Positions 6,719 to 57,882 of a stretch of DNA of 64,000 bases are shown in pieces; the stretch's first letter is position 1, and each line of letters begins with the position of its first letter. The notes under the pieces are model-generated. The model ran no database searches, was not told where the DNA came from, and worked only from the letters and a program-made list of their open reading frames with translations. Position numbers and translations under genes: made by a program. This stretch comes from Planctomycetota bacterium (GTDB lineage: Bacteria; Planctomycetota; Planctomycetia; Pirellulales; JADFKK01). The stretch covers positions 30,786 to 94,785 of the forward strand of contig JADFKK010000001.1 in NCBI GenBank assembly GCA_022564995.1, read 5' to 3'.

Positions 6719-6792
6719 TACTTCAGCGCAACGTCGTCAGCGGCTTTCAAGGATGGAAAACGTGTCTGGAACGATCGGTTTCCGGAAAGCAA

Positions 6793-6950
6793 GGGACTGG
6801 AGATTGGGGGCTGGAGACTGGAGACTGGAGACTGGAGACTGGGGGCTGGAGACTGGGGGCTGGAGACTGGGGCGGGACGAGTCGGAAGCGAGGTTTCCCT
6901 AGTCCCCAGCACCTAGTCCCCAGTCTCTAGTCCCCAGCCCCCCAGTCCCC
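6793..6950. repeat. heptamer-phased imperfect palindrome (GACTGGA/GACTGGG/GGCTGGA units facing CTAGTCC/CCAGTCT units)
   Basis: About 11 tandem 7-nt units at 6793-6872. The loosely complementary C-rich units lie at 6897-6950, separated by a ~24-nt spacer. Confidence 0.8.
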
Positions 6951-7026: not shown

Positions 7027-7311
7027 ATGCCACCCGCCGCGCGACTTGGTGATCTCCACGTCTGCCCGATGTTTGACGGACCGAAACCGCACGTCGGCGG
7101 ACCGATTGCGCTCGGCTGCTTTACCGTCATGATCGGCGGTCAGCCAGCGGCCCGCGTTGGCGACATGGCCGTTTGTGTCGGCCCTCCGGACGCCATCGCC
7201 ATGGGCTCCACGGGCGTCCTGATCGGCTATATGCCGGCCGCCCGCATGGGCGACACTACCGTCCACGGCGGCAAGATCGCCGTCGGCTTTCCCACCGTGA
7301 TGATTGGGTGA
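7027..7311 (+). CDS. PAAR domain protein (spike tip), no toxin extension
   Basis: 94 aa with three PAAR-type motifs (PAARLGD, PAARVGD, PAARMGD). AAGGAG Shine-Dalgarno sequence upstream. Confidence 0.85.
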   Translation: MPPAARLGDLHVCPMFDGPKPHVGGPIALGCFTVMIGGQPAARVGDMAVCVGPPDAIAMGSTGVLIGYMPAARMGDTTVHGGKIAVGFPTVMIG

Positions 7312-7401: not shown

Positions 7402-7409
7402 CACCTTTG
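7402..7409. repeat. left copy of the 8-bp target-site duplication CACCTTTG of element E1
   Basis: The identical 8-mer abuts the other element end at 11535-11542. Confidence 0.75.
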
Positions 7410-7466
7410 GGCAGTGACACCGTTTCAGCCGTTGTCAGAGAGAAACGGTGGGAATGAGAAGAAAAG

Positions 7467-7751
7467 CTAAGGCAGAATCTCGCACTGCGGCGAATCCTGC
7501 TTGGGCGTTTCGAGGTCGTGCGGAAAAAATAGAATACAACGGTCGTGGTATGGATTCGGGCCAAAAAATCCGTTATGCTCACCGAAGCGTTTTTGCAACC
7601 ACGCCGCCGTCTCTTCTTTTTGCTTCTGTAGTGCCCGGTACTGCCTGTACTGAACCCAGCCGCCAAATGCGACGGTGGCCACCGTCATCACAATCATCAG
7701 CGTCTTCAGGCTGAACTGATACCAGCGACGTTTGTGCGGTGAGGCGTTCAT
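7467..7751 (-). CDS. small membrane-anchored protein (cargo of E1)
   Basis: 94 aa. N-terminus 'KRRWYQFSLKTLMIVMTVATVAFGGW' gives one predicted TM helix. No recognisable domain. Confidence 0.55.
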   Translation of the reverse strand: MNASPHKRRWYQFSLKTLMIVMTVATVAFGGWVQYRQYRALQKQKEETAAWLQKRFGEHNGFFGPNPYHDRCILFFPHDLETPKQDSPQCEILP

Positions 7752-7753
7752 AC

Positions 7754-7798
7754 GCCCATTATCCTGTCCGGGGAGGGGGAGGGGGAGGGGAAGGGCTA
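7754..7798. repeat. dispersed G-tract element, copy 1
   Basis: GCCCATTATCCTGTCCGGGGAGGGGGAGGGGGAGGGGAAGGGCTA. Shares a 19-mer with copy 2 (21096-) and a 17-mer with copy 3 (55472-). Confidence 0.8.
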
Positions 7799-8410
7799 TT
7801 CAATCGAATCCCAGAGATTGTCTGCTTTTACCCGCCGCGAAATCACCCCCGCTGACACCTCAAATGGCGACGCAATGTAAGACTCGACCATCTTCCTCAC
7901 CTCTTCGCTTGGTACTGCTGAAGAAATAGCGCCGACACTACGTGCCGCGTCAACCGCCGTAGAGAAGTGGTCGTGAAGCGGCTTCTCCTGGACGAGGATA
8001 AGGCCACCAAGGGAATACGCTTGAAATTCAATCCATCGAAGCTGGTCGTGTGGGATTCCTGCTACGACTGCCTTCCACTCAAACACTGATGAGAAATCTA
8101 GCTCGGCGATTATGTCCTTGTGAAGAACAATGTGGGCCAACTCATGGGCAAGGCTAAAGCGATACCTGTTTGGCCGGTTCTTATAAACGAATTCGTCGAT
8201 ATAAACCGTCTTCAAATCTTTACTCGGCGCTGACTCCATCTCCAAGTTGTTCTGGAGCCCCGGAATTGCCACAATGTCAAGGTCAAACTCGTATTCGGCG
8301 ATGCGTTCGATGGGCACTGGTAGAGTGCCTTCCGGGTGGTGTTCTGCGAGAAACGTGTCTGCGACTTCTCGAAGCTTATCATATGGGAGAAAAGGGGCTT
8401 TGATGGGCAC
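7796..8410 (-). CDS. ImmA/IrrE family metallopeptidase
   Basis: 204 aa with the HExxH motif 'AHELAHIVLH'. Sits immediately downstream of an XRE regulator, as in ImmR/ImmA modules. Confidence 0.8.
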   Translation of the reverse strand: MPIKAPFLPYDKLREVADTFLAEHHPEGTLPVPIERIAEYEFDLDIVAIPGLQNNLEMESAPSKDLKTVYIDEFVYKNRPNRYRFSLAHELAHIVLHKDIIAELDFSSVFEWKAVVAGIPHDQLRWIEFQAYSLGGLILVQEKPLHDHFSTAVDAARSVGAISSAVPSEEVRKMVESYIASPFEVSAGVISRRVKADNLWDSIE

Positions 8411-8414
8411 GGCT

Positions 8415-8786
8415 TCATGATCTCCGTATCATTTCCAGCAATTCGTCCAGCTTTTCTGATGGAAACGGGTGCCCGCGAAGGGTCCGAAACAGGGCCGGAA
8501 GCTTGTCGATGAGTTCCTCATCGGACAGCAAGTCCTTTGGAAATTCACCGCGAGCCGCCGCCGCTGCATCAAAAAATTCAATCCATGCGTCCGTGTCTCG
8601 CTGAATCTCTAGGGCAACGGCATATTTTTCGAGTAGCTGTTGTCCCTGCGGTGGTGACGCGCGGCCGCGCTCCAGGCGGCTGTAGTTGCCAGGGTCAATG
8701 TCGTTTTTGAGGCAAAACTCGCGGAGCGTGAGCCCCAATTTTTTGCGATGTGCCTTGAGCGTTCTGCCAAATATGTTTTCCGCCAT
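8415..8786 (-). CDS. XRE-family helix-turn-helix regulator
   Basis: 'LKAHRKKLGLTLREFCLKNDIDPGNYSRLERGR' HTH_XRE signature. Start chosen at the internal ATG (8786), which is preceded by GGAGGA; the ORF track extends to 8846. Confidence 0.8.
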   Translation of the reverse strand: MAENIFGRTLKAHRKKLGLTLREFCLKNDIDPGNYSRLERGRASPPQGQQLLEKYAVALEIQRDTDAWIEFFDAAAAARGEFPKDLLSDEELIDKLPALFRTLRGHPFPSEKLDELLEMIRRS

Positions 8787-8834
8787 GATGAGTCCTCCGC
8801 ATCGCGGACGTAAGTCGTTTTGGATATTGTACTT

Positions 8835-8862
8835 ATAATACAACACCGGCCGACCTAGTCAA
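8835..8862 (-). promoter_or_regulatory. candidate sigma70-type promoter of the E1 XRE gene, overlapped by the palindrome TTGTA-N7-TACAA (8827-8843)
   Basis: On the minus strand: TTGACT, 16-nt spacer, TATTAT. A second TACAA-N3-TTGTA lies near 8957-8969. Confidence 0.4.
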
Positions 8863-9060
8863 GTGATGTCTGGAAGATCATCGTCTTTGTCAGGTCATAT
8901 CTTAACGCCCTTTGGCGGAGTGTCAAGATGACGAGTCGCGTAAATCTCTGGAAATACAACAATTGTAGTCACGTCCGTTGGTCACCCGGGGGTCACTTAA
9001 GTGCCGTTCGTTTCACTGGACCCTCTTGAAAAAGATGAGAAGGATGACTAGACTTCGTGT

Positions 9061-9777
9061 ATGGACATTGAAAGCCAACTCGCGGCCTCCGATGCGTTCT
9101 CCCGACTTTGCGCGGACGCGATGCGGGTCAAGAGTCTACATGAGGCCGCTGAAATGGAACTGCCGCCGTCGCTCAGGCAGTTCTTCGGGATTCAAGAAAC
9201 AAATGGATCGGCACTCAGCCGCCCCCGTGTGTCGATTCCGCCGCCGCAATCACCCCCCGGTCCGTCGCACGCGAGTTCGGACTGGATTTGGGTTCCAATG
9301 GAGGACATGCACGCGACCGGAATCGTTTTGGCCATTCTTCGCCAAGCTGCTGGACCCGTTGAGCCGGCGACCGTAACGGAAAAGGTTCTTCAACATCAGC
9401 CTGACGTGAATCCCAGAAGTGTTCTGAATATCGGCCCGCGGCAAGAAGGCAAGCTTATTGAAAGAACGAATGAGGGTTGGGTGCTTCGCGGCGATAAAGA
9501 CCGAGCCCCCGTCCTGCACAAGGGACACGCATGGGGGCCGCCAACGGTTTTCGACAAACAAGAATTGGCCGCCCATCGCAGGATAATGCTGGCCCACCTG
9601 CTTGATGCAATGCCTGGCGGATTGCAGGTGGTTCAGATTGTTGAACAGTTGAAAAACCTACCGTACTGCCGCGCGCCAGTCAGCAAGGACTTGGTAAAGG
9701 CAGACTTGTCGGCAATGCAAGAGGTTGGCAAGGTGAAGCGTGTCGGCAACACCCGTAAATGGGTCTTGTCGAATTAA
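9061..9777 (+). CDS. hypothetical protein with two winged-helix-like segments (E1 cargo)
   Basis: 238-aa ORF divergent from the XRE gene. Two segments ending '...EGWVL' and '...RKWVL' resemble wHTH wings. No confident family. Confidence 0.5.
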   Translation: MDIESQLAASDAFSRLCADAMRVKSLHEAAEMELPPSLRQFFGIQETNGSALSRPRVSIPPPQSPPGPSHASSDWIWVPMEDMHATGIVLAILRQAAGPVEPATVTEKVLQHQPDVNPRSVLNIGPRQEGKLIERTNEGWVLRGDKDRAPVLHKGHAWGPPTVFDKQELAAHRRIMLAHLLDAMPGGLQVVQIVEQLKNLPYCRAPVSKDLVKADLSAMQEVGKVKRVGNTRKWVLSN

Positions 9778-9833
9778 GACGCTATCGTAACGGACTGACG
9801 GAAAGGCACGGTTTGCCTATGAACGAACAAAAC

Positions 9834-9876
9834 GACCTCGGCGAAAGTGCTAATTTCGCCGAGGTCTTTGTCGTTT
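9834..9876 (+). terminator. Rho-independent terminator after ORF 9061-9777
   Basis: 13-bp stem GACCTCGGCGAAA / TTTCGCCGAGGTC, 7-nt loop, followed by TTTGTCGTTT. Confidence 0.7.
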
Positions 9877-9888
9877 GAAGGATTGGAT

Positions 9889-9961
9889 GCCAGGGTAGCT
9901 CAGTGGAGAGAGCAGCCGACTGCTAATCGGCAAGTCGCGGGTTCGACCCCCGCCTCGGGTA
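9889..9961 (+). tRNA. class-I tRNA-like gene, anticodon loop CUGCUAA (anticodon GCU), weak acceptor stem
   Basis: Manual cloverleaf. D arm: TAGCTCAGTGGAGAGAGC. Anticodon stem: GCCGA/TCGGC. Variable loop: 5 nt. T arm: GCGGG-TTCGACC-CCCGC. The acceptor stem has one A.G mismatch and two G.U pairs. No encoded CCA. Confidence 0.55.
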
Positions 9962-9986
9962 TCTTTTTCCTTCGTCCCGTCGCTTC

Positions 9987-10051
9987 GGGCCTGCCAGGTG
10001 GTAACGGTGCTTTATAAGCATCGTGACCGGGTTCAACTCCCGGCAGGTCCA
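9987..10051 (+). ncRNA. D-arm-less tRNA-like element, anticodon-type loop UUUAUAA
   Basis: Acceptor GGGCCTG/CAGGTCC. T arm CCGGG-TTCAACT-CCCGG. 7-bp stem ACGGTGC/GCATCGT with a 7-nt loop. Only 10-12 nt where a D arm should be. Confidence 0.4.
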
Positions 10052-10200
10052 CTGAAAAACCGCAGCACGCGGCCACGGTCATTCTGCGCGCCACCCTAGC
10101 ACATACACGGAATGTCGTCAAACCCCTTTTTACGAAAGGAGTTATGTCGTGCCTTGGCTACCACGCGCAGAAATATCCAAAGGGGCCTTACGGCCCCCGA

Positions 10201-10392
10201 TTATTTGTTTCGGCGTTTTGCTGCCCTGAGCAAAATCTCTCTCGCCCACACGGCAACAGATTTGCCAGATTTAGCAGCCGCCTGCCGGATGATGTCCCAC
10301 TGCTCGTCCGGCCAGCGTCCGACCTGCCGAACGGGATTTATCTCTTTCACCGCCTTTGCAGGGCGTCCAGGGCCACGTTTCGTCTTACTCAT
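10201..10392 (-). CDS. ribbon-helix-helix (CopG/MobC-like) DNA-binding protein
   Basis: 63 aa. 'VRQVGRWPDEQWDIIRQAAAKSGKSVAVWAREILLRAA' fits the RHH beta-alpha-alpha pattern. Divergent from the transposase gene. Confidence 0.65.
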   Translation of the reverse strand: MSKTKRGPGRPAKAVKEINPVRQVGRWPDEQWDIIRQAAAKSGKSVAVWAREILLRAAKRRNK

Positions 10393-10455
10393 GCCCCAAG
10401 TCTATACCGCCATGGGTTTTGTGTCAATACATGATATTTTCATAAACTCCCTATT

Positions 10456-10490
10456 TCGTGTATTAACACGAAATTATATTCTGGTACAAT
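10456..10490 (+). promoter_or_regulatory. candidate transposase promoter of E1 with an overlapping palindrome
   Basis: TTAACA (10463-10468), 16 nt, TGgTACAAT (extended -10, 10482-10490). The palindrome TCGTGT-ATTA-ACACGA (10456-10471) covers the -35. AT-rich divergent region. Confidence 0.45.
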
Positions 10491-10622
10491 TGAGACAGTG
10501 AATGAAAAACCCCGACGCCTGCTGAAACAAGCACCGGGGCAACAACAATCGGGCTTTCGCCAGACTATTGTCTGTCAAACGCATTCTAGCGAGAGCCCCC
10601 AACGAAGGGAAGGTTTCTCGCT

Positions 10623-11495
10623 ATGGCCAACAGAATGAGCACCGAAAAGCGTAACACGATCTTGCGACTCATGGTCGAAGGAAACAGCATCCGCTCCATC
10701 ACCCGCCTTATGGGAACCAACATTCCATCGGTCATCCGCCAACTCACCTGGGCCGGCGACCACTGCGCCGCCCTGATGAATGAACGATTCCGACACCTGA
10801 CGCTCACCCATGTCGAGTGCGACGAAATCTGGACCTTCGTACAAAAGAAGCAATCCCGCCTCACGATGGAAGAGCGCGAGACCCGTGGCGACATTGGCGA
10901 CATCTACCTCTGGACCGCCCTGGACCAAGGCAATCGCCTGATTCCCAGCTTCGTCGTAGGCAAGCGCTCGGCCGACAATGCCCGCCGGTTGATGATGGAC
11001 CTGCGGAGCCGTATCACGATCCCACGGCCGCACGAAGCGGACGTGACGGGCGAGTACCGCAAGGTGCTGCAAATCTCGTCGGACGGATTCGCCGCGTATC
11101 CCGAAGCTGTCGATCTTGCCTTCGGCCCCTACGTCAAGTTCGGCACGATCATCAAAGACTATCGAAACGCCAACATGCCCTACACGCCCAGCGAGATGGT
11201 TGGCACTCAACGACGGGGCATCAAGGGCATACACGGCAGCGAAGAACGGACGATATGCACGTCGCACGTCGAGCGAAACAACCTCACGATCCGCACGTTT
11301 ATGAAGCGGTTCACCCGGCTCGCCCTGGGATTCAGCAAGAAACTCGAAAACCTGGAATCGGCCGTCAGCCTCCACATGGCCTATGACAACTTCTGCTGGC
11401 GTTCGGGCGAAATGAGGGTCACGCCGGCGATGGCCGCGAAGGTCACCAAGACGCTATGGAGTTTCGACGATCTGATGATGGGGACGGCGGCCTAG
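10623..11495 (+). CDS. IS1 family transposase (single fused ORF)
   Basis: 290 aa. N-terminal HTH, 'CDEIWTFV', 'YLWTALD', 'SSDGFAAY' and 'HVERNNLTIRTFMKR' match the IS1 DDE/ERxN pattern. Confidence 0.85.
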   Translation: MANRMSTEKRNTILRLMVEGNSIRSITRLMGTNIPSVIRQLTWAGDHCAALMNERFRHLTLTHVECDEIWTFVQKKQSRLTMEERETRGDIGDIYLWTALDQGNRLIPSFVVGKRSADNARRLMMDLRSRITIPRPHEADVTGEYRKVLQISSDGFAAYPEAVDLAFGPYVKFGTIIKDYRNANMPYTPSEMVGTQRRGIKGIHGSEERTICTSHVERNNLTIRTFMKRFTRLALGFSKKLENLESAVSLHMAYDNFCWRSGEMRVTPAMAAKVTKTLWSFDDLMMGTAA

Positions 11496-11534
11496 CGGGT
11501 TTTTCCTTACCTTTGGTCAAACGGTATCACTACC

Positions 11535-11542
11535 CACCTTTG
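11535..11542. repeat. right copy of the 8-bp target-site duplication CACCTTTG of E1
   Basis: Identical to 7402-7409 and directly abuts the right terminal inverted repeat (IRR). Confidence 0.75.
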
Positions 11543-11580
11543 AAGGGGTTTGACTTGTTGCCGGAAATCGCTAAGGTGTT

Positions 11581-11601
11581 GGTAGTGTTGTAGTTTCAGC
11601 A
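11581..11601. repeat. solo IS1-type left-end remnant
   Basis: GGTAGTGTTGTAGTTTCAGCA matches the E1 IRL GGCAGTGACACCGTTTCAGCC at 14/21 (GG.AGTG and GTTTCAGC blocks) and the E2 IRL at 12/15. No partner right end seen. Confidence 0.4.
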
Positions 11602-11714
11602 TCAGGCACCGGTATCATCGCCCTGAGGATAGGGGCGGCTCTGAAATCCCCAGTCCGCAGCGGCTTGGATCGGCGAGGACGTTCGTTCGCGCCGCACTCA
11701 TCCAGGATCTGGCC

Positions 11715-12896
11715 GTGATCAAGCGAAAACGCAGAACGACGATTCGCCGCGAAGGCTGGTACTATCTTTTTGTGCTGGCGTTTGTGCTGACTGGGGCGGT
11801 CTTGCGCGAGATCAATCTGCTGATGATCCTGGCCGGCATGATGATCGGGCCGCTGTTGGTCAACTGGCGGATGGCCGTGGCGGCGCTAAAAAACATCGAC
11901 GTCCGCCGCACGCTGCCCGAGGCCGTGCATGCCGGCGACGTGTTGGCCGTGCAGCTTGAGTTGACGAACAACAATCGTCGGCTCGGCGCTAGTGCCGTGT
12001 CGGTCGACGATGTGATCCGTGTTGGTCTCCCCGGCCAAGAGCGTCGCATCGGCGGAGGTGGCGCATTGTTCGCACATGTCGCCGCCAGAGAGTCGGCCGC
12101 GACCGTTTATCGTGGGCGGCCGATGCGCGGTCTGTGGCGATTTGGTCCCCTGAAGGTTTCCACCAGCTTTCCGTTGGGTTTCATCCGCCGCACGATCACC
12201 ATCAACGAAACCGCCGAGGTGATGGTCTACCCCCGGCTCGGCAGGCTCACCCGGAAATTCGGCGAGATGCAAAACCGAGTTTACAGCGAGGGATCCCGCT
12301 CGCAACAACGCCGCGGCTTGACCGAGGGCGATTTCTACGGGCTGCGCGACTGGCGCAGCGGAGACAGCCGGCGTTGGATTCATTGGCGCACCTCCGCCCG
12401 CACGGGAACGCTGGCGGTGCGGCAGTTCGAGCAGCGGCAGCACGACGATCTGGCGCTGCTTGTGGATTTGTGGTCGCCGGCCGCCCCCGACACGCAATTC
12501 ACCGAGCACGTCGAGCAGTTGATCAGCTTCGCCGCGACCATCGTTGCCGAGCGCTGTCGGCGCGGCGGCAGCCGGCTGCTGCTGGCGGTCGGTGGCACAC
12601 AGCCGGCGATCACTATCGGCACGGCCTCGCCAGCGCTGTTGCGCGAGGCACTGCATCATCTGGCCGTTAGCCAGCCCAGCAGCGATCAGCGGATCGACGA
12701 GCTACTGCGCGAGCCGCTCGCGCAGAGCCGCCGCTGGCAAAACGCGCTGCTGCTCAGCACCAGATCAAAGACGGTTGAAGAAGACTCGGATTTGACGCCG
12801 CTTTGGCACGATCCGCTGCTGGCCGACCGGCTGCAGCACCTGCGATGTCTGGATATTTCGGGCGGACAACTGTCGGAGTATTTCGATGCCGAATAA
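11715..12896 (+). CDS. DUF58 domain protein
   Basis: 'DFYGLRDWRSGDSRRWIHWRTSARTGTLAVRQFE' is the DUF58 core. N-terminal TM pair. GTG start. Confidence 0.85.
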   Translation: MIKRKRRTTIRREGWYYLFVLAFVLTGAVLREINLLMILAGMMIGPLLVNWRMAVAALKNIDVRRTLPEAVHAGDVLAVQLELTNNNRRLGASAVSVDDVIRVGLPGQERRIGGGGALFAHVAARESAATVYRGRPMRGLWRFGPLKVSTSFPLGFIRRTITINETAEVMVYPRLGRLTRKFGEMQNRVYSEGSRSQQRRGLTEGDFYGLRDWRSGDSRRWIHWRTSARTGTLAVRQFEQRQHDDLALLVDLWSPAAPDTQFTEHVEQLISFAATIVAERCRRGGSRLLLAVGGTQPAITIGTASPALLREALHHLAVSQPSSDQRIDELLREPLAQSRRWQNALLLSTRSKTVEEDSDLTPLWHDPLLADRLQHLRCLDISGGQLSEYFDAE

Positions 12897-15324
12897 TCCC
12901 GAGACCGCCGCGCCGGCCCGCCTCGAGCGACGACTCCAAGTGAGCGTCGTGGTGCTCTCGCTGCTCGGTACGTTGGTGTTGGGCATGGGGCAGATGAACT
13001 ACCGGCTGCCGCTGCTCGTGCTACTGACCGGCAGCACGAGTTTGTTGGTCACCGATTTTCGGCGGTGGATAGAGATCGGCACCTTCGTGGCCAACATCGC
13101 CGCGATAGCGGCGGTCGTCTTTTCGATAAGCGACTATCTGGTGTTTGACACAGAAACCCAACTGCTGGCGATCGCCAATCTGCTGGTCTATCTGCAGATC
13201 ATCTTGCAATTCCAGAAAAAAACGATCCGCATCTTCTGGCAACTCGTCGTGCTCAGCCTGCTGCAAGTGGTCGTCGCCTGCGCGCTGAATCTGGGGGTGA
13301 TGTTTGGCGGGCTGCTGATCGTCTATCTCTGCTGCGTGCTGCGAGTGTTGATGCTGATGTACGTCCAACGCGAAACAGAAAGCCACTCACATCGACAAGA
13401 AAGAGACGAGCCGGGCCGGCGGAATGTTTTCCGATCGATCAGCAGTGTCCCAACCGACAGCTTCCCGACCGACGGGCGCTGGTTTGGCGAGGCGGTCTCC
13501 GGCCAGTTAGGCGGCCCTGCGGTCAATCGCTCTATGTGGCGTTTGATCGCGCTGACTTCTGCGCTGACCATGGTGCTGACGGCAATGATCTTCAGCGCCG
13601 TGCCGCGATATCACCGCGAGGCGTGGGAAGGGATCGGTGATCGAACGATCCGCATCGTTGGCTTTTCAGATGAGGTAACCGTCGGAGACCTGGGGCCGGT
13701 CATCCAAGACCCGCAGGTCGTCATGCGCGTCCAACTGATCGATCCCGAAAGCCACAAGCCGTTTTCGCTGCTGGGGCGGGCTCTGTTTCGCGGGGCCGTG
13801 CTCACCGATTATCAGGGCGACGGAGTCTGGAAACGAAGATACAAACGACGGAATCGCCAACCGCTGCGCGATACGGTGAGCGGCGAAATCACCTCGGACG
13901 ACCACGTTGTGCGGCAGGAAATCACCATGCCTCACTCGAACATTGAAGTCATGTTCAGCATCTATCCGCCCGTCGGATCGCCGGACGGAGTATCCGACCG
14001 GCTGGTCAAATACGACCGCGCCCGCAATCAGCTTTTGCGGACCAATCACGACAGCCGTCGCAATACCAAGACGCAATACGTGGTTCACACCTTGGGCATT
14101 CGTGATGGCGCCATGGCGGCGATCGCCCCGACGCTGGTGGGCGACCGACAACGCTACGATCGACCCGACAGCGCGATCGACGTCACTCGGCTCAAGCGAA
14201 TGGGTCCGAAACGCTCACAGCTACCAGAATTGATCGCCTTGGCCGAGCGGGTCGACCGTGCGTCGGGGTTGGCCGAGGAAAACCGCATCGGCCGCGCGCG
14301 CGCGATCGCCCGACATCTCAGTGACTCGGGTGATTTCACTTACACGCTGCAGGCGCAGGAGCGAGACTCGAACCTTGATCCGATCGAAGATTTCATTTCC
14401 AACACTCGCCGCGGACACTGCGAGTATTACGCCAGCGCCTTGACCTTGATGCTTCGCAGCCGGGACATCCCCGCGCGGTTGGTGGTCGGTTTTGTCGGCG
14501 ACGAATGGAACGATTTCGGATCGTTCTATCAAGTCCGCCAGTTACACTCACACACGTGGGTCGAGGTTTACCTCCGCCGCGATCAACTGCCGGACGATCC
14601 GTATTACCGCAGCGAACATTTCGCCGCCGGCGGCTGGCTCACGCTCGACGCGACGCCCGCAGACACCGACGACGGAATGACCCTGTCTCATAACGATTGG
14701 CTGTCTCGCGCGCGAGAGCTGGCCGACTACGCGCAATTGCTATGGACCTCGTATGTCGTCGACATGACGCCCCGCAGGCAGGAGCGGGCGATTTACGAGC
14801 CGATTCGCAAGCGGTGGAAGGCGGCACTCGATGCGATCGATGTGATGCTTGGGGGCGACACCGCTGCGGAGACAACAGCGACTTCCGGCGTTTGGGTCGA
14901 CTGGGCGGGCGTGTTGGTTGGAATTGTCGGCGGAGCGGCCTTGCTGGCCGTGTTGATCGTGGTCTGCCGGCCGCTGCGAAATCGGCTGGCCCGCGTTTGC
15001 CGCTCACTTCTTCGCCGCCCGCCGCGAGAGACAGCCCCCGGGCAGCCCGACGTGCCGTTTTATAAATCGCTGGAAAAGATGCTCGCCCGCGAGGGCATCC
15101 ATCGTCAGGCATCTCAGACGCAGCGAGAATTCGCCTTCGCCGCCGGCGCGCAGCTCGCCGACCGGCCGACGCTCAGCTCCGTCGCTGGATTGCCCCGGCA
15201 GGTGGCCGACGCCTTCTATCGCGTCCGCTTCGGCGGCCACACCCTGGACAACACGCAGGCCCAAGCGGTAGAACAAGCTCTTTCGGAATTGGGCCGGGCG
15301 CTGGCAGCGAGCCGCAAAGGATAG
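12886..15324 (+). CDS. transglutaminase-like membrane protein (TgpA-like)
   Basis: 812 aa. Multi-TM N-terminus and transglutaminase Cys core 'RRGHCEYYASALTLMLRSRDIPARLVVGF'. Overlaps the DUF58 stop by 11 nt. Confidence 0.85.
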   Translation: MPNNPETAAPARLERRLQVSVVVLSLLGTLVLGMGQMNYRLPLLVLLTGSTSLLVTDFRRWIEIGTFVANIAAIAAVVFSISDYLVFDTETQLLAIANLLVYLQIILQFQKKTIRIFWQLVVLSLLQVVVACALNLGVMFGGLLIVYLCCVLRVLMLMYVQRETESHSHRQERDEPGRRNVFRSISSVPTDSFPTDGRWFGEAVSGQLGGPAVNRSMWRLIALTSALTMVLTAMIFSAVPRYHREAWEGIGDRTIRIVGFSDEVTVGDLGPVIQDPQVVMRVQLIDPESHKPFSLLGRALFRGAVLTDYQGDGVWKRRYKRRNRQPLRDTVSGEITSDDHVVRQEITMPHSNIEVMFSIYPPVGSPDGVSDRLVKYDRARNQLLRTNHDSRRNTKTQYVVHTLGIRDGAMAAIAPTLVGDRQRYDRPDSAIDVTRLKRMGPKRSQLPELIALAERVDRASGLAEENRIGRARAIARHLSDSGDFTYTLQAQERDSNLDPIEDFISNTRRGHCEYYASALTLMLRSRDIPARLVVGFVGDEWNDFGSFYQVRQLHSHTWVEVYLRRDQLPDDPYYRSEHFAAGGWLTLDATPADTDDGMTLSHNDWLSRARELADYAQLLWTSYVVDMTPRRQERAIYEPIRKRWKAALDAIDVMLGGDTAAETTATSGVWVDWAGVLVGIVGGAALLAVLIVVCRPLRNRLARVCRSLLRRPPRETAPGQPDVPFYKSLEKMLAREGIHRQASQTQREFAFAAGAQLADRPTLSSVAGLPRQVADAFYRVRFGGHTLDNTQAQAVEQALSELGRALAASRKG

Positions 15325-54229: not shown

Positions 54230-54233
54230 CGCG

Positions 54234-54289
54234 GAGGATCGAGGATCGAGGATTGGGGAGCGAGGGACGAGGAGTTAGGAGCTAGGGAC
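54234..54289. repeat. heptamer-phased purine-rich tract (GAGGATC-type units)
   Basis: GAGGATC GAGGATC GAGGATT GGGGAGC GAGGGAC GAGGAGT TAGGAGC TAGGGAC. Confidence 0.6.
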
Positions 54290-54336
54290 TGTGGAAGTCG
54301 GAGTCACTCTGCCCGATTTGGCACGCCGCCACGCTC

Positions 54337-54344
54337 AGCATGCT
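54337..54344. repeat. left flanking 8-mer AGCATGCT of element E2 (probable target-site duplication)
   Basis: The same 8-mer abuts the other end at 57875-57882. The 8-mer is itself palindromic, so it could instead extend the inverted repeat. Confidence 0.6.
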
Positions 54345-54433
54345 GGTAGTGTCCTAATTCGAATCGGCGTCAGAAAGAAACGGTGGAAAGTTAGAAAAGA
54401 CAAGCGGCCTGAAACCGTTTCACTTCGGTGCAG

Positions 54434-55399
54434 CTATTTGCCTGATAGCAGGGACGTAAGTCCCAAAGCGATTGCTGAACCAAGGACCAACATCACGATC
54501 GCCAAAATGATGTTTGCCAGCATAGATCCCGTACCGAATCGGATTCCGAGCGATGTCAGTTTCGCGTCCTGTTCGGTCGTTTTTGCTACCAACATATTCA
54601 CACTCGCCAAGACTTGGCTAGCGCTGCGCGTATTATCGTCAGCGAGGGCTCTTACGGCATCAACATCTTTTGCTGTCCGCCGCAATTCCTGGGTAAGCTG
54701 GCGAACATCGTTGGTCACGTTATCGACGTTACTAGTAAGTCTCTGAATGGGTTCAATAACGTCGCCGTACTGTTGCTTAAGGTCCAGTACGTCTTTTGCC
54801 AGTTGTTGTATCCGTTTGACTTCATCACTGATTTCCGCCCACGGCATAACGTCCATGTTTGCCATGCTGGTGAGAAAATCGCCAGGAAATTCTCCGACCA
54901 GGAGGTCAGGGTCTGACCCAACAGGCTTTTGATCGGAGTCCAACTTCTCAAAGATGAGTGTACAGATTTTACCAGACATCCGCAGAACACGTTTCGCCGA
55001 GGAAGCATTGTAAAGGCCAAACAAAAGATGGCCTTCATACCCTGGATCGACGACGGACCCGGTAAGAAGGATCAACCCCTCGTAAGAAAACTTACGTTTG
55101 GAGCCGATACGAGCGAGCACGTTGTTTGGGAGTTTTAGGCGTTCAAGTGAAATGACCCCAGCGTATGAACCCGGACCGATTGTCAGGCGATCCTTTGTCA
55201 TGTCGATGTCATTGCCATGGCCACCAGAGATTGCCTTCTTGCCGATTCGTACATCGTAGGAAGTTGACTGCAAGCAAGCGCCGTCAAATGTTTCCTCACT
55301 GATTAGCTGTCCATTTTTCACGAAACGGCGAATCTCTTTCTCCGTGAGGATAATACTCCCCTGCGGATCGCTCGGTAGGCGTTGCTGTTCGTCTGCCAT
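54434..55399 (-). CDS. dCTP deaminase/dUTPase-fold N-domain fused to a coiled-coil and a C-terminal TM anchor
   Basis: The N-terminal 160 aa align by eye to Dcd ('ILTEKEI...G.L.I....QS.SYDVRIG', 'VVDPGYEGHLLFGLYN'). Residues 190-290 are heptad-rich. The C-terminus 'MLANIILAIVMLVLGSAIALGLTSLL' is a TM helix. Confidence 0.65.
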   Translation of the reverse strand: MADEQQRLPSDPQGSIILTEKEIRRFVKNGQLISEETFDGACLQSTSYDVRIGKKAISGGHGNDIDMTKDRLTIGPGSYAGVISLERLKLPNNVLARIGSKRKFSYEGLILLTGSVVDPGYEGHLLFGLYNASSAKRVLRMSGKICTLIFEKLDSDQKPVGSDPDLLVGEFPGDFLTSMANMDVMPWAEISDEVKRIQQLAKDVLDLKQQYGDVIEPIQRLTSNVDNVTNDVRQLTQELRRTAKDVDAVRALADDNTRSASQVLASVNMLVAKTTEQDAKLTSLGIRFGTGSMLANIILAIVMLVLGSAIALGLTSLLSGK

Positions 55400-55471
55400 G
55401 ATATTCCCACCCCATCAAAGAAATGCAACAACCAACAACGCCAGTAATTGCCCCAAATGAAACCGAGCCCC

Positions 55472-55510
55472 GCCCATTATTTCGTCCCGCGATGGGGAGG
55501 GGAAGGGCTA
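55472..55510. repeat. dispersed G-tract element, copy 3
   Basis: GCCCATTATTTCGTCCCGCGATGGGGAGGGGAAGGGCTA. Its terminal 17-mer GGGGAGGGGAAGGGCTA is identical to copy 1. Confidence 0.8.
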
Positions 55511-55521
55511 GAAGCCCACGA

Positions 55522-55740
55522 TCACAACAAGTTCTTGATGTCTACTTTGATGGCCTGCGCAAAGCGATAGAGCATACTCAGCCTGGGGTCTCTTGTGCGG
55601 TGGATGAACTGCCACGCGGATTTGCGGGCCGAATTCGCCGGATAGCCCATTTTTCGGCCAAGTTCATCGAGGCTCATGCCAGAGTCCTCGAAAATCTCGG
55701 CGACGCGGGCCATCACGTTTGGTGCGGTCTTCTTGACCAT
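55522..55740 (-). CDS. small XRE/Cro-like HTH regulator
   Basis: 72 aa. 'MSLDELGRKMGYPANSARKSAWQFI' helix-turn-helix. Divergent from ORF 55908. Confidence 0.7.
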   Translation of the reverse strand: MVKKTAPNVMARVAEIFEDSGMSLDELGRKMGYPANSARKSAWQFIHRTRDPRLSMLYRFAQAIKVDIKNLL

Positions 55741-55748
55741 GCCCGGAA

Positions 55749-55766
55749 GTCTATATTGTCATAGAC
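55749..55766. promoter_or_regulatory. operator-like palindrome GTCTAT-N6-ATAGAC in the XRE promoter region
   Basis: GTCTATATTGTCATAGAC. The same arms recur at 56798-56815. A minus-strand TTGACA lies at 55771-55776. Confidence 0.55.
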
Positions 55767-55907
55767 GTTTTGTCAAGTGCGGATTCCGAGTGTGTACCTT
55801 TGACCAGCGAAATTAACTCAGCGCAGGTCACCTGTGTGTTAGTGATTGACATTCATCCTAGATGCAATACAATGAGTTCGTATCGTAACTCACGAAAGGA
55901 TATCACG

Positions 55908-56363
55908 ATGGATGAACAACAAGCGTTGAAAACAGCCGAGCAATTGGCGAAACACCGCGAATTTCTGGATGAAATCCGGGAAAAGCGACTCGCACTCAAA
56001 CATAAACTTGAAAACCTGACAACAGTGGAGAAATACCACGCCGATGAGGTTCTGCGCCTTGAGGGGCCGCTAGCGACCGTCAATCTGGCGCCCGAAGTGC
56101 AGACAGAGACGAGCGATCATGCGGCCCAAAATGGATTTTCTATATCTGAGTCTGCCACCAAACACGAAGCGTGTCGACTCGCCCTAAGAGCAATGGGTCG
56201 CCGCAGCAAGACACCGGAAATTGCGGATTGGCTTGTTGCACACGGCTACGGACGGAACCTCCGAACCAAAATTCTTCGCAACGCCTGTTTTACCGCAATG
56301 GCAAGGAAGGAAGAGATTTTCGATAAGATCGACGGCAAATGGGGGCTAATCGAAGCCGAGTAG
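55908..56363 (+). CDS. hypothetical coiled-coil plus winged-helix-like protein (E2 cargo)
   Basis: Start at 'MDEQQALK' with AAGGA 8 nt upstream. The C-terminal '...TPEIADWLVAHGYG...KIDGKWGLIE' is wHTH-like. Positional counterpart of E1 ORF 9061-9777. Confidence 0.55.
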   Translation: MDEQQALKTAEQLAKHREFLDEIREKRLALKHKLENLTTVEKYHADEVLRLEGPLATVNLAPEVQTETSDHAAQNGFSISESATKHEACRLALRAMGRRSKTPEIADWLVAHGYGRNLRTKILRNACFTAMARKEEIFDKIDGKWGLIEAE

Positions 56364-56619
56364 CAAAGTCTCAGCGGCCCCGGGGGGACCGCTGAGACCT
56401 CGTGTAGATGTCCCCCCGCAATCGCCGGCTCGGCGGGTGTTTGGTTTCGAGGCCACGCCCGTCGTTCCGGCCCAACGCATGGAGGGCCGAGTCCCATGAG
56501 CAACCCGTTAAGGATGCTCGGTGCGATACGTTTATCGCGTGATAAATCCGGCTGACCTCACGGTCAACCAAGTGTCCAGGTCGCGGTCCAACGGGCCGCG
56601 ATCCTGGGCACCCCTTTTT

Positions 56620-56723
56620 GGCACGGTGGCCGAGCAGGTTAAAGCGCCCGGTTTATACCCGGTGGCCTGGGCAAGGATAGCTAGCTCCGACGCCCAGCAT
56701 GGGTTCGATCCCCATCCGTGCCG
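56620..56723 (+). tRNA. class-II (long variable arm) tRNA-like gene, anticodon loop UUUAUAC (UAU), discriminator G
   Basis: Acceptor GGCACGG/CCGTGCC is perfect. T arm ATGGG-TTCGATC-CCCAT. Ser-tRNA-like 'TGGCCGAGCAGGTTAAAG' D region with a weak stem. 35-nt variable region with a 6-bp stem. 104 nt in total. Confidence 0.5.
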
Positions 56724-56777
56724 CTCTGGGGATCGCTGACATTCTATACAAATCGGCTCCCCGCGTCAATTTCTTCA

Positions 56778-56815
56778 TTGACAATCATTGATTGTGTGTC
56801 TATAATGACATAGAC
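56778..56815 (+). promoter_or_regulatory. consensus sigma70 promoter of the E2 transposase with an overlapping operator
   Basis: TTGACA (56778-56783), 17 nt, TATAAT (56801-56806). The palindrome GTCTAT-AATGAC-ATAGAC (56798-56815) covers the -10. Confidence 0.65.
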
Positions 56816-56941
56816 AAGCATGGGATACAAAACCCCGACAACGGCTGTAACCGCTGCCGGGGCGAACCACAACCGGCTTTCGCTGATTGCAGCCTCAACA
56901 CCTCAATCATAGCGAAGCCCAAGAAAAAAGGAACCTTCGCT

Positions 56942-57838
56942 ATGGCTATTCGCCTCCCCCGAGAAAAGCAGCTTGCTTGCCTACAGCACTTGGTCGAGGG
57001 CAACACGATCCGCAGTACCGAAAGGTTGCTGGGCGTCCACCGGGACACCGTCATGCGCCTCATGGTCCGATTCGGAACCGCCTGTCAAACCATGATGGAT
57101 CAGCGGATTCGTGGGCTCACGGTGGACAAGATCGAGATTGATGAGACGTGGACATTCTGCGGTCGAAAGAATCGCACCTTGAGCCCGAATGAGAAGCTTG
57201 AGCGGTACGATCTGGGTGACCAGTACCTCTGGGTCGCGCTTGAAGCCGACAGCAAATTGGTTATCTCGCACGTCGTCGGGAAGCGCAGCGGCGACAACGC
57301 CCGCAGGCTGATTCGAGACTTGTCAGAACGGCTCGTGTTCCCAACTCCCCACGAAGCGGACCTGCACGGCTACCGGCCAATCTGTCAGATTACGACCGAC
57401 ATGTACATCGTCTATCCCGAAGCGATCGACCAGTTTTTCGGACCCTACGTCAAGTACGGGCAGATCAAGAAAGACTACCGCTCGCACGACATGCCCGGCC
57501 GCTACACGCCGGCCGAGATAGTGGCCACGCAGCGGAAAGGGATATTCAACATAGAGGGCGACGAATTGTACGGTCTGAGCACGAGCTACGTCGAACGATT
57601 CAACCTCACGAACCGGGTTTTGCAAAAGCGATTTACCCGATTGTCGCTCGGCTTTTCCAAGAAACTCGACAACCTGAAAGCGGCTTGCTCGATGTTCATG
57701 GGATATTACAATTTCGTTTGGCGGACCCGGCGGCCCGGCAAGAGCGGTCGCTATCGTCCGCCGGCTGCGATGATGGCTGGCGTGACGAGCCGGCTGTGGT
57801 CGTTTGAAGATTTGTACGATGAGGCGATGGCGGCGTAG
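56942..57838 (+). CDS. IS1 family transposase (single fused ORF)
   Basis: Start at 'MAIRLPREKQ'. 'IDETWTFC', 'YLWVALE', 'TTDMYIVY' and 'YVERFNLTNRVLQKR' motifs. Clearly related to, but far from identical with, 10623-11495. Confidence 0.85.
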   Translation: MAIRLPREKQLACLQHLVEGNTIRSTERLLGVHRDTVMRLMVRFGTACQTMMDQRIRGLTVDKIEIDETWTFCGRKNRTLSPNEKLERYDLGDQYLWVALEADSKLVISHVVGKRSGDNARRLIRDLSERLVFPTPHEADLHGYRPICQITTDMYIVYPEAIDQFFGPYVKYGQIKKDYRSHDMPGRYTPAEIVATQRKGIFNIEGDELYGLSTSYVERFNLTNRVLQKRFTRLSLGFSKKLDNLKAACSMFMGYYNFVWRTRRPGKSGRYRPPAAMMAGVTSRLWSFEDLYDEAMAA

Positions 57839-57874
57839 TTTTTCCTTGACGGCAGGTCAAATTAGGACACTACC

Positions 57875-57882
57875 AGCATGCT
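57875..57882. repeat. right flanking 8-mer AGCATGCT of E2
   Basis: Identical to 54337-54344. Confidence 0.6.

Follow-up and report, generated by a model that had tools for sequence, protein, structure and literature searches.

A probable IS1-family unit transposon carrying cargo genes and a UAU tRNA-like gene in a Planctomycetota bacterium

Related systems described to date

Insertion-sequence derivatives with passenger genes between their inverted repeats, known as transporter IS (tIS), form a recognized category that was originally defined on the IS1595/IS1 group (Siguier, Gagnevin and Chandler 2009, as cited in PMC3129680 and PMC9330008). The element E2, located in the 64 000-nt stretch of DNA analyzed here (the window), is comparable in having one IS transposase, IS-type ends, passengers inside these ends and a target-site duplication (TSD) around the unit. 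The original prediction that this architecture belongs to no described class was therefore overstated. In the tIS literature, we found no description of a module comprising a tRNA-like gene, an RHH gene and a leader, of fixed rare codons in the transposase gene (tnp) or of a Planctomycetota-wide radiation.

IS1 of enterobacteria (ISfinder single-ORF subgroup) resembles E2 in its DDE transposase, which in E2 matches an IS1 profile, in its GGnnnTG ends, in its TSD (8 bp in E2, 8–9 bp for IS1) and in an N-terminal HTH, which relatives of subfamily II combine with a zinc finger. However, E2 is 3.5 kb long rather than 0.77–1.2 kb, with ~2.6 kb upstream of tnp taken up by passenger and accessory genes; it lacks the InsA/InsB frameshift arrangement and contains a tRNA gene as well as a structured leader. 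Larger cargo unit transposons (Tn3-family with toxin-antitoxin pairs; Tn7-like with defence cargo, PMC8649781) likewise combine a conserved transposition module with a slot enriched in toxin-antitoxin or defence genes, although their machinery is unrelated, and E2-type elements are much smaller, with a single transposase and neither a resolvase nor targeting proteins.

Mukai et al. (NAR 2017, PMC5389517) described allo-tRNA-UAU and irregular tRNA polycistrons, assigned their loci to Acidobacteria and defined no transposon. The tRNA-like genes reported here correspond to this group: they share the Ser-type body, the long variable arm, the UAU anticodon, the 9/3 acceptor/T form (in relatives of E2) and the neighboring toxin-antitoxin genes and transposase, although the E2 copy is 7/5, not 8/4 or 9/3. 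A sister element in the window, E1, resembles the polycistrons, in that a UAU tRNA-like gene comes after its tRNA(GCU). The present analysis places such genes inside IS1-family elements delimited by ends and TSDs, and links them to the ATA codons of tnp.

Structure of E2 and its family

The features of E2 are as follows.

54337..54344, unstranded: left TSD copy AGCATGCT, 8 bp (direct reading)
54345..54369, plus: left inverted repeat (IRL) GGTAGTGTCCTAATT, perfect over 15 bp, 20/25 identical to the right one
54405..54417, minus: terminator-like hairpin 3΄ of the DCD-like gene (consensus scan only)
54434..55399, minus: cargo gene for a 321-aa DCD-like protein with a DCD/dUTPase fold at residues 17-155, a coiled coil and a TM helix at the C terminus
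55494..55510, plus: G-tract 17-mer GGGGAGGGGAAGGGCTA, exact copy in E1 at 7782-7798
55522..55740, minus: small HTH protein, 72 aa, putative regulator of the cargo gene
55748..55873, unstranded: divergent promoter-like pair (minus TTGACA-17-TAGACT, plus TTGACA-16-TACAAT)
55908..56363, plus: orphan 151-aa ORF, no family match
56368..56398, plus: GC-rich hairpin 3΄ of the 151-aa ORF, without T-run (direct reading)
56620..56723, plus: tRNA gene, 104 nt, anticodon UAU (Rfam RF00005, 46.6 bits, E 8e-9, alignment)
56741..56769, minus: promoter-like site facing the tRNA, at the RHH gene position of other elements
56778..56806, plus: tnp promoter TTGACA-17-TATAAT, 12/12 consensus positions
56832..56941, plus: structured tnp leader, blocks conserved with E1
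56942..57838, plus: IS1-family DDE transposase of 298 aa, encoded by a single ORF; residues 201 and 204 specified by ATA
57850..57874, minus: right inverted repeat (IRR), pairs with IRL
57875..57882, unstranded: right TSD copy AGCATGCT, 8 bp (direct reading)

With a span of 3530 bp (54345-57874), E2 is very probably a real 3.5-kb autonomous IS1-family unit transposon of the transporter IS type. Its ends, TSD, transposase and passenger genes agree with the original prediction of a genuine IS1-type transposon with cargo, including the perfect 15-bp terminal repeats and the AGCATGCT copies adjoining both ends. The inverted repeat extends imperfectly beyond these 15 bp, and its tip, GGTAGTG, matches GGnnnTG, the end pattern of the IS1 family. 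The single DDE transposase would bind the GGTAGTG... inverted ends and move the whole 3.5-kb segment with its cargo, making an 8-bp target duplication. The transposase scored 27.9 bits against PF03400 (GA 24.1), with both the E1 and E2 proteins above the gathering threshold; the IS1 NCBIfam model NF033558 matched at 4e-15 for E2 (4e-15 and 3e-17 for the two tnp genes), with a score below the curated cutoff. JGI labels its homologues (n = 905) as IS1 family. The GC content of E2 is 53.6%, compared with 59.3% for the window, and this foreign composition extends over the whole interval.

In Planctomycetota MAGs, the boundaries of 60 related elements were located, spanning 1872–7618 bp. Of these, 58 exhibited GGTAGTG-type ends flanked by a perfect 8-bp duplication around the whole unit, in agreement with the proposed old, diversified, IS1-derived family with variable cargo. 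Had relatives always been simple ~1.1-kb elements with an IRL next to tnp, this proposal would have failed; among the 60, none was a bare ~1.1-kb IS (the shortest being 1872 bp) and none had an IRL directly upstream of tnp. The family is large and found mostly in Planctomycetes, and its backbone comprises the UAU tRNA-like gene, a minus-strand RHH gene (absent in E2), the structured leader and tnp. Beyond this backbone, the cargo is variable and resembles toxin-antitoxin or defence genes; it includes SocA/Panacea, HEPN, N6_N4 methylases, ImmA, XRE and DUF4411. Of the conserved backbone and swappable slot that had been envisaged, the slot is indeed variable, whereas the XRE and wHTH genes, which show no homology between E1 and E2 and form no recurring cluster, are not part of the backbone.

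The tRNA-like gene, the leader and the ATA codons

The Rfam match bore out the predicted tRNA-like gene, although ARAGORN did not call it at 56620-56723. It forms a 7/5 cloverleaf with the anticodon loop UUUAUAC, a variable region of about 32 nt and a discriminator G (predicted fold –46.5 kcal/mol), and is of the same class as the genes in three other loci (L003, L048 and L055). A UAU tRNA-like gene was found in at least 49 of 80 related loci: with a threshold of E < 1e-9, the covariance model R1 identified 40 loci, the hit in each case sharing the strand of tnp and lying about 0.5–0.65 kb upstream of it, and two further classes (B and C), to which E2 and E1 belong, added at least nine. Compensatory changes were observed in 15 of 20 base pairs, and G-U pairs fix the strand of the RNA. 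The linkage is reciprocal, in that 26 of 34 UAU-type metagenome hits (those with enough downstream sequence) were accompanied by a same-strand IS1-type tnp within 1.2 kb.

In tnp, ATA occupies three fixed isoleucine positions (columns 271, 263 and 260), accounting for 53/59, 39/42 and 22/31 of the Ile codons, respectively, compared with a host background of 8.2% (binomial P from 1e-17 to 1e-50). Five other conserved Ile columns contained no ATA, and the codons beside the ATA sites vary freely at synonymous positions. Counted over 85 loci, 67 of the 83 Ile codons before CTSHVER were ATA. At column 263, ATA was more common in the presence of the tRNA (32/40) than in its absence (7/19; P = 0.0025), an association confounded by phylogeny.

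The E2 promoter supports the earlier expectation of a strong promoter before tnp, in matching the consensus at every position. The leader contains hairpin 1 (56832-56863), helix 2 (56875-56884 with 56911-56919) and an alternative helix 3 (56911-56919 with the Shine-Dalgarno/start region, 56933-56941). In alignment A4, helices 2 and 3 were 84% and 81% paired, respectively, and their covariation exceeded that of all 500 shuffles. Of 62 elements, 43 encoded a small RHH protein; its gene invariably occupied the minus strand and lay between the tRNA and tnp, with its stop codon adjoining the tRNA 3΄ end. The conserved tnp-proximal module consists of the UAU tRNA-like gene, usually an RHH repressor-like protein, the strong promoter, the leader and tnp. 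The two leader helices are mutually exclusive, one of them sequestering the ribosome-binding site, and this switch, along with two or three conserved rare AUA codons located shortly before the motif of the catalytic Glu, would throttle transposase output post-transcriptionally; the UAU tRNA-like RNA might act on the throttle as an AUA decoder or modulator.

An alternative to which we assign slightly less than an even chance is that the tRNA-like gene and the ATA codons are uncoupled. The RNA might then serve RNase P/Z processing or insulation, or act as an RNA antitoxin or decoy against the cargo toxins or as a binding partner of RHH or the transposase; the ATA codons would simply slow translation through the host's scarce AUA decoder. 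In about 30–40% of the elements, chiefly those of a clade whose XRE gene immediately precedes tnp, no UAU tRNA could be detected, yet ATA is kept at the main site; a strict requirement for the tRNA is therefore excluded. In addition, none of six allo-tRNA-UAU variants acted as a suppressor in E. coli, and two of them proved toxic, so that the published assays count against simple decoding (PMC5389517). The adjoining RHH stop codon and the wide variation among tRNA-like bodies (9/3, 7/5 and truncated forms) around a fixed loop also favor uncoupling. However, no part is better conserved than the anticodon loop YUUAUAA, although the three bodies that carry it differ greatly; U33, A37, the D-loop GG and the T-loop GTTCGA, required for the L-shape, are retained; and the sole strongly biased tnp codon is the one read by a UAU anticodon, with ATA sites more frequent where the tRNA is present. 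These observations are consistent with the tRNA and the ATA codons acting together.

Cargo, integrity and boundaries of E2

The left slot is occupied by a membrane-anchored, minus-strand gene, as predicted. The N-terminal region of its product has the fold signature of dCTP deaminase (Dcd) and of dCTP-deaminase defence proteins (Pfam PF22769, 3e-15; TIGR02274, 1.6e-20, below cutoff; PDB 9ln0, 1e-15). However, a Gly is aligned at the canonical catalytic Glu (Mtb E129, E. coli E138), and the canonical Ser and Arg are also missing; to judge from these residues, catalytic activity is doubtful. The coiled coil and membrane anchor further distinguish it from Dcd, and the PADLOC deaminase defence models gave no match. 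Full-length homologues number about 158 and come from several phyla. DCD homologues were located either within a defence or mobile island or at a position where they interrupt a gene.

The 72-aa protein matched HTH_3 (0.043) and capH (0.0064) weakly, with no similarity detected to the E1 XRE protein. For the 151-aa ORF, the wHTH label was unsupported: no match was found in Pfam, NCBIfam or PADLOC, the ORF matched only itself in a database of 5.8 billion proteins, and the AlphaFold model had a pLDDT of 54.7. The G-tract is indeed identical in E1 and E2; none of the 80 related loci contains it, and it is therefore no family feature. In general, the distal slot would hold toxin-antitoxin or defence-type genes, and the membrane-anchored DCD-fold protein, HTH regulator and orphan gene of E2 might confer a selective or addictive benefit.

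E2 is atypical of the family, in lacking the RHH gene, in having a 7/5 class-II tRNA rather than the 9/3 allo-type and in having CTG (Leu) at one of the three conserved ATA sites. Neither a second copy nor an empty site was found in the data searched, the three E2-bearing contigs being one and the same locus; current activity thus shows no sign and, unlike the directly read ends and TSD, is a matter of interpretation. It is conceivable, although improbable, that E2 represents the decaying remnant of a cargo transposon that has become immobile, whose genes are kept, if at all, for the host, e.g. as a domesticated defence module. The single copy accords with this, as do the absence of the RHH gene while a promoter-like site remains, aimed into the tRNA, the CTG (Leu) codon in place of ATA at residue 212, and the occurrence of most family members once per contig. 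However, the 15-bp ends are perfect, the 8-bp TSD and the 298-aa tnp ORF are intact, residues invariant across the family are retained, the promoter fully matches the consensus and the tRNA folds well.

That E2 is not one unit but a simple ~1.1-kb IS1-type IS beside unrelated genes, the distal IRL being a solo end that another copy left behind or a chance match, is highly improbable: only one copy is known and the palindromic AGCATGCT might by itself be taken for a piece of a longer (23-bp) inverted repeat, but no IRL-like sequence was found near the tnp start, the distal IRL is the best IRR partner within 8 kb, GGTAGTGTCCTAATT occurs in the window without mismatch only at 54345-54359 and, as the reverse complement, at 57860-57874 (by chance, about 0.4 matches with ≤3 mismatches would be expected), the interval lies 6 GC points below the window, and 58 independent relatives share the arrangement with non-palindromic perfect 8-bp TSDs around units of 1.9–6.7 kb, none being ~1.1 kb. 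We accordingly read AGCATGCT as an 8-bp TSD of a single cargo-bearing unit.

E1 comprises the following features.

7410..11534, plus: E1, 4125 bp, TSD CACCTTTG at 7402-7409 and 11535-11542
Cargo: TM protein, ImmA, XRE and 238-aa ORF
9888-9963: tRNA(GCU)
About 9987-10050: short tRNA-like gene (UAU)
10201-10392, minus: RHH gene, between the tRNAs and tnp, without counterpart in E2
10623-11495: tnp

The parallel layout described for E1 and E2 holds with respect to gene order, although RHH occurs only in E1. Similarity was undetectable in either the XRE or the "wHTH" pair, for which a distant relationship had been proposed, whereas the transposases are 51% identical, so that the proteins are not uniformly "only distantly related". 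As also predicted, the right-end string TTTTTCCTT..GGTCAAA..CACTACC follows the tnp stop codon in both elements.

Ends, target duplication and family assignment

A perfect 15-bp terminal repeat, GGTAGTGTCCTAATT, lies at 54345–54359 and, as its reverse complement, at 57860–57874 of E2, and these two are the only exact matches to it in the 64-kb window. Both ends are flanked on the outside by AGCATGCT. Repeat and flank are as originally described. The G+C content of E2 is 53.6%, compared with 59.3% for the window. Between the ends, the element contains the features listed below.

Features of E2, in element order
321-aa ORF, minus strand: DCD-like, with a C-terminal hydrophobic helix
G-rich tract, following the 321-aa ORF
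72-aa ORF, minus strand, following the G-rich tract: HTH protein
151-aa ORF, plus strand, divergent; then a hairpin
56620–56723: tRNA gene (Rfam, 46.6 bits; undetected by ARAGORN)
56778–56806: promoter, 12/12 consensus
56942–57838: IS1-type transposase, 298 aa

We collected 80 loci of relatives (transposases 44–61% identical, one genome per species, all Planctomycetota MAGs; loci are given L numbers) and bounded the element at each locus by the best pair of GGTAGTG-type ends around the transposase gene (tnp). Elements could be bounded at 60 loci, and a perfect 8-bp direct repeat of flanking DNA was present in all of these except L025 and L027 (58/60). The repeats are unrelated to one another in sequence and mostly non-palindromic. 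E2 (AGCATGCT) and its sister element E1, which spans 7410–11534 (CACCTTTG), follow the same rule, with 8 bp each. It had been suggested as an alternative that the palindromic AGCATGCT extends the inverted repeat; because the 8-bp rule is family-wide and holds for both E2 and E1, the palindrome at the E2 ends is the target-site duplication (TSD). The bounded relatives range from 1872 to 7618 bp, with at least 951 bp from the left end to tnp and often 0.25–2.8 kb of DNA past tnp. Simple relatives of about 1.1 kb, proposed as the observation that would count against a cargo-carrying element, were absent among the 60 bounded loci, and the conserved ends are the distal ones. A composite transposon can be dismissed, as E2 has one tnp, with no second tnp and no internal inverted-repeat pair in 54345–57874.

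A search for a second E2 copy or an empty site returned the same locus only, in three assemblies, on the three contigs that encode the 151-aa protein. With one copy on record, there is therefore no sign of recent movement of E2. The uninserted target site would read ...CACGCTCAGCATGCTCTCTGATT..., and viral contigs gave 7 weakly informative matches.

The E2 and E1 transposases matched PF03400 with 27.9 and 31.0 bits, respectively (gathering score, 24.1), and the NCBIfam IS1 model NF033558 with E-values of 4e-15 and 3e-17 (56–63 bits, below the cutoff of 100). The GGTAGTG tips at both E2 ends and in the relatives fit GGnnnTG, the end consensus of the IS1 family (ISfinder), and the 8-bp TSDs of E2, E1 and 58 of the 60 bounded relatives agree with the 8–9 bp of this family. 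Whereas the classical IS1 subgroup has an insA/insB pair joined by –1 frameshifting, E2 has a single 298-aa ORF, consistent with the single-ORF subgroup that exists within the IS1 family. The relatives form two transposase subfamilies: I, which includes E1 and E2 and lacks an N-terminal zinc finger, and II, which has a CxxC...CxxC extension.

Among IS, the IS1 family is commonly seen as the simplest kind. The transporter IS, whose ends enclose passenger genes, is a category introduced for the IS1595/IS1 group (cited in PMC3129680 and PMC9330008). Passenger genes between inverted repeats, a single transposase and a TSD around the whole unit are all found in E2. E2 is thus a true transporter IS of the IS1 family, and within the large Planctomycetota family to which it belongs it is somewhat atypical. 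The core of the original prediction, a family of cargo-carrying IS1-type transposons, holds, with its backbone to be redefined and its claim of novelty to be tempered; we found no prior description of this architecture in the literature. The IS1 family in Planctomycetes has radiated into 2–7-kb vehicles for toxin-antitoxin or defence-type genes, which annotation pipelines overlook because the ends are kilobases away from tnp.

The UAU tRNA-like gene and the transposase leader

ARAGORN with default settings missed the E2 tRNA and most of its relatives, and relaxed settings produced many false matches; tRNA-like genes were therefore sought by a regular expression, a covariance model and Rfam. 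Many elements carry, on the tnp strand and 260–650 bp ahead of tnp, a tRNA-like gene whose anticodon loop is YUUAUAA. Its body is of class A (about 90 nt; 9-bp acceptor stem, 3-bp T stem and long variable arm), class B (7/5 class-II with a very long variable region and discriminator G; E2, L003, L048 and L055) or class C (truncated, 61–68 nt; E1 at about 9987–10050, L002, L053, L022 and L037). In the class A alignment, 15 of 20 pairs show compensatory changes and G-U pairs fix the strand, and the class A covariance model (R1) detected 40 loci at E < 1e-9, with the tnp strand in all. All classes together, a UAU tRNA-like gene is present at at least 49 of the 80 loci.

As a reciprocal test, we scanned metagenomes with the T-arm/acceptor 3΄ half and obtained 120 loci, 56 of the UAU type. 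Where a UAU-type locus was followed by at least 900 nt of sequence, an IS1-type tnp was found within 1.2 kb on the same strand in 26 of 34 cases, compared with 6 of 64 non-UAU loci, several of these 6 being variants missed by the regular expression. The tRNA-like gene is a real RNA gene linked to tnp. GGTAGTG ends, the 8-bp TSD and R1 together provide a simple means to delimit these elements and catalogue their cargo.

Aligned to RF00005, the E2 tRNA has a 7-bp acceptor stem, a 5-bp T stem, a variable region of about 32 nt, a 3΄-terminal G after the acceptor stem and the anticodon UAU. Like the allo-tRNAs of Mukai et al., it combines a non-Ser anticodon with a body of the Ser type (long variable arm, discriminator G), but it lacks their 12-bp acceptor branch (8/4 or 9/3), being 7/5; this branch is present, with covariation, in 40 related loci as a 9-bp acceptor stem plus a 3-bp T stem. 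The UAU tRNA-like RNAs of the elements match the allo-tRNA-UAU group of Mukai et al. These authors report that no other allo-tRNA type is as abundant in metagenomes from soil and sediment, and that other members of the group, when assayed in E. coli, were inactive as suppressors and sometimes toxic (PMC5389517). In E1, a class-I tRNA GCU (9888–9963) followed by the UAU tRNA-like gene resembles the irregular tRNA polycistrons of the same authors.

Ordinary-looking tRNA genes (Gly-UCC, Thr-CGU) occur in some elements besides or instead of the UAU type (L007, 7292–7365; L037, 2077–2152; L040, 9218–9293). At the metagenomic loci L107, L144 and L200, a different, non-UAU tRNA-like sequence ends 15–25 nt upstream of the IS1-like transposase start. 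A dense tRNA-like array downstream of the L013 element (10578–15177) is probably a host tRNA cluster.

E1, E2 and the subfamily-I relatives also share a tnp leader, in which a GC hairpin preceded by an A-run, together reading as an intrinsic terminator on the opposite strand, is followed by two mutually exclusive helices. RNAalifold gave no useful consensus for this leader, so the helices were drawn by hand and then tested. Helix 2 is formed by GGCTTTCGC and GCGAAAGCC, and helix 3 by the same GCGAAAGCC(CCC) and the Shine-Dalgarno/start region. Pairing in helices 2 and 3 was about 81–84%, compared with 25–49% in slid controls, and the covariation of helix 3 exceeded that of all 500 shuffles. 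These values are consistent with a role of the predicted helices in controlling translation initiation of tnp. A T-box-like leader with an AUA specifier was rejected, there being no conserved AUA in the loops.

Fixed ATA codons in the transposase gene

ATA makes up 21% of the Ile codons in tnp, compared with 8.2% in long flanking ORFs. The excess comes from three alignment columns in a stretch of 12 codons, which lies just ahead of CTSHVER, the motif with the catalytic Glu of the transposase: column 271 (53/59 ATA), column 263 (39/42) and column 260 (22/31). Across 85 loci, the Ile codon ahead of CTSHVER is ATA in 67 of 83 cases. ATA does not occur in five other conserved Ile columns, and the synonymous positions of adjacent codons change freely. 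In E2, residues 201 and 204 are encoded by ATA and residue 212 is Leu (CTG); in E1, ATA occupies the columns that match E2 residues 204 and 212. Conservation through an overlapping ATG or nucleotide motif was rejected, because such a context is missing from the other two sites and synonymous changes occur in the codons nearby.

At column 263, ATA was more common with a UAU tRNA (32/40) than without one (7/19; P = 0.0025), a comparison confounded by phylogeny; the main ATA site is still ATA in clades lacking the UAU tRNA. That the single codon under strong selection is the one matched by the element's own anticodon suggests, without proving, a functional coupling. It is possible, if less likely than not, that the UAU tRNA-like gene works with the fixed AUA codons as a self-contained translational circuit. 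The element's own tRNA would then act as decoder, or mis-decoder, of two or three rare AUA codons, which would gate completion of the transposase just ahead of its catalytic Glu, and transposase output would depend on the expression, processing or charging of this tRNA. Such a circuit would provide a function for the long-unexplained allo-tRNA-UAU group and, to our knowledge, would be the first case of a transposon licensing its own transposase by a private tRNA. Conservation of a rare codon at particular sites together with a matching element-borne anticodon suggests, as a hypothesis, codon/tRNA-based control of transposition. Our literature search found no earlier description of a link between allo-tRNA-UAU and these elements or of fixed AUA codons in tnp, and both are the most interesting leads.

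Accessory and cargo genes

We clustered every ORF of 62 elements (the 60 bounded relatives, E1 and E2). An XRE gene and a wHTH gene had been proposed as a conserved backbone; this proposal fails, as neither the two XRE genes nor the two 'wHTH' genes of E1 and E2 resemble one another. The sole widespread accessory protein is a ribbon-helix-helix (RHH) protein of 55–65 aa (RGRPPK...IRLT...STWAREVLLKAAKR), found in 43 of the 62 elements. Its gene lies on the minus strand, 190–615 bp upstream of the tnp start, and is present in E1 (10201–10392) and absent from E2; the RHH proteins that its profile matches in the PDB are TacA/DUF1778 antitoxins, NikA and CopG. In a clade with the ends GGTAGTGTCCTAATTTG, a plus-strand XRE gene directly 5΄ of tnp takes its place. 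A 10/12 promoter-like site at 56741–56769 (minus strand) of E2 is divergent from the tnp promoter and faces the tRNA gene in antisense orientation; the equivalent site drives the RHH gene in other elements, and this gene has been lost in E2.

The 151-aa protein of E2 is an orphan (the homologue search returned itself only), and its single-sequence AlphaFold model (pLDDT 54.7) was too poor for use. As for regulators of the CapH/CapP type, which pair an HTH repressor with an M78 protease, E1 has both (capP, 1.4e-9; capH, 1.3e-5), whereas in E2 the protease is missing and the HTH is only weakly capH-like (E = 0.0064).

Among the 138 cargo ORFs that encode 140 aa or more, most had no Pfam match. 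The matches included SocA/Panacea antitoxin (5), XRE HTH (4), N6_N4 methylase (3), RiboL-PSP HEPN (3), MtlR-like (3) and ImmA (2) domains, as well as DUF4145, DUF4411, a kinase and nested IS elements. Given this variety, 'swappable effector slot', the term used in the original prediction, is a fair description. In L026 and L030 (same MAG), a 1979-bp core containing the tRNA-like gene, RHH, tnp and the right inverted repeat is 100% identical and the left parts differ; in L030, a 1323-bp stretch of host sequence is directly repeated on either side of the core (5389–6711 and 8922–10244). This pattern could reflect cargo swapping, one-ended transposition or an assembly artefact.

The E2 cargo protein has an N-terminal DCD/dUTPase-fold domain (PF22769, 3e-15; PDB 9ln0, 1e-15) and belongs to a full-length family of about 310–360 aa from several phyla. 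It shares its fold with dCTP deaminase (Dcd) but not the catalytic Glu and the Ser/Arg motif: in the alignment to M. tuberculosis Dcd, TLELSN corresponds to LLFGLYN (catalytic Glu to Gly) and KSSLGR to KRKFSY. A dCTP-depleting deaminase is thus unsupported, and because of these changes we do not call the protein a deaminase. Our guess is a nucleotide-binding sensor coupled to a membrane effector. One DCD-like homologue shares an island with UvrD, GmrSD-HNH, HNH, ParB and a recombinase, and another (L088, 3695–6464) lies between two fragments of a ROK-family gene, like an inserted single-gene cassette. Just upstream of the E2 DCD-like gene is a possible 20-codon hydrophobic mini-ORF (55408–55470, minus strand; MGGARFHLGQLLALLVVAFL); the E1 sequence aligned to it, ATAATGGGCG, runs directly into the E1 effector start.

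The G-tract 17-mer GGGGAGGGGAAGGGCTA is identical in E1 (7782–7798) and E2 (55494–55510), and in both elements it separates the stop codon of the regulator from the start of the effector. None of the 80 related loci contains it, which excludes it as a family feature; it is therefore specific to this genome, and suggests perhaps an exchange between the co-resident E1 and E2 or a host-specific signal.

E1 is inserted (7402–11542 including the TSD, CACCTTTG) about 90 bp downstream of a vgrG (4502–6718) and PAAR (7027–7311) pair, a position usually occupied by type VI secretion effector genes. Between vgrG and PAAR, at about 6790–6950, a long inverted repeat is made up of imperfect, G-rich heptads (GGAGACT/GGGGCTG), and short G-rich repeats akin to these (ggatcgagg...) are found just left of E2, at 54230–54290.
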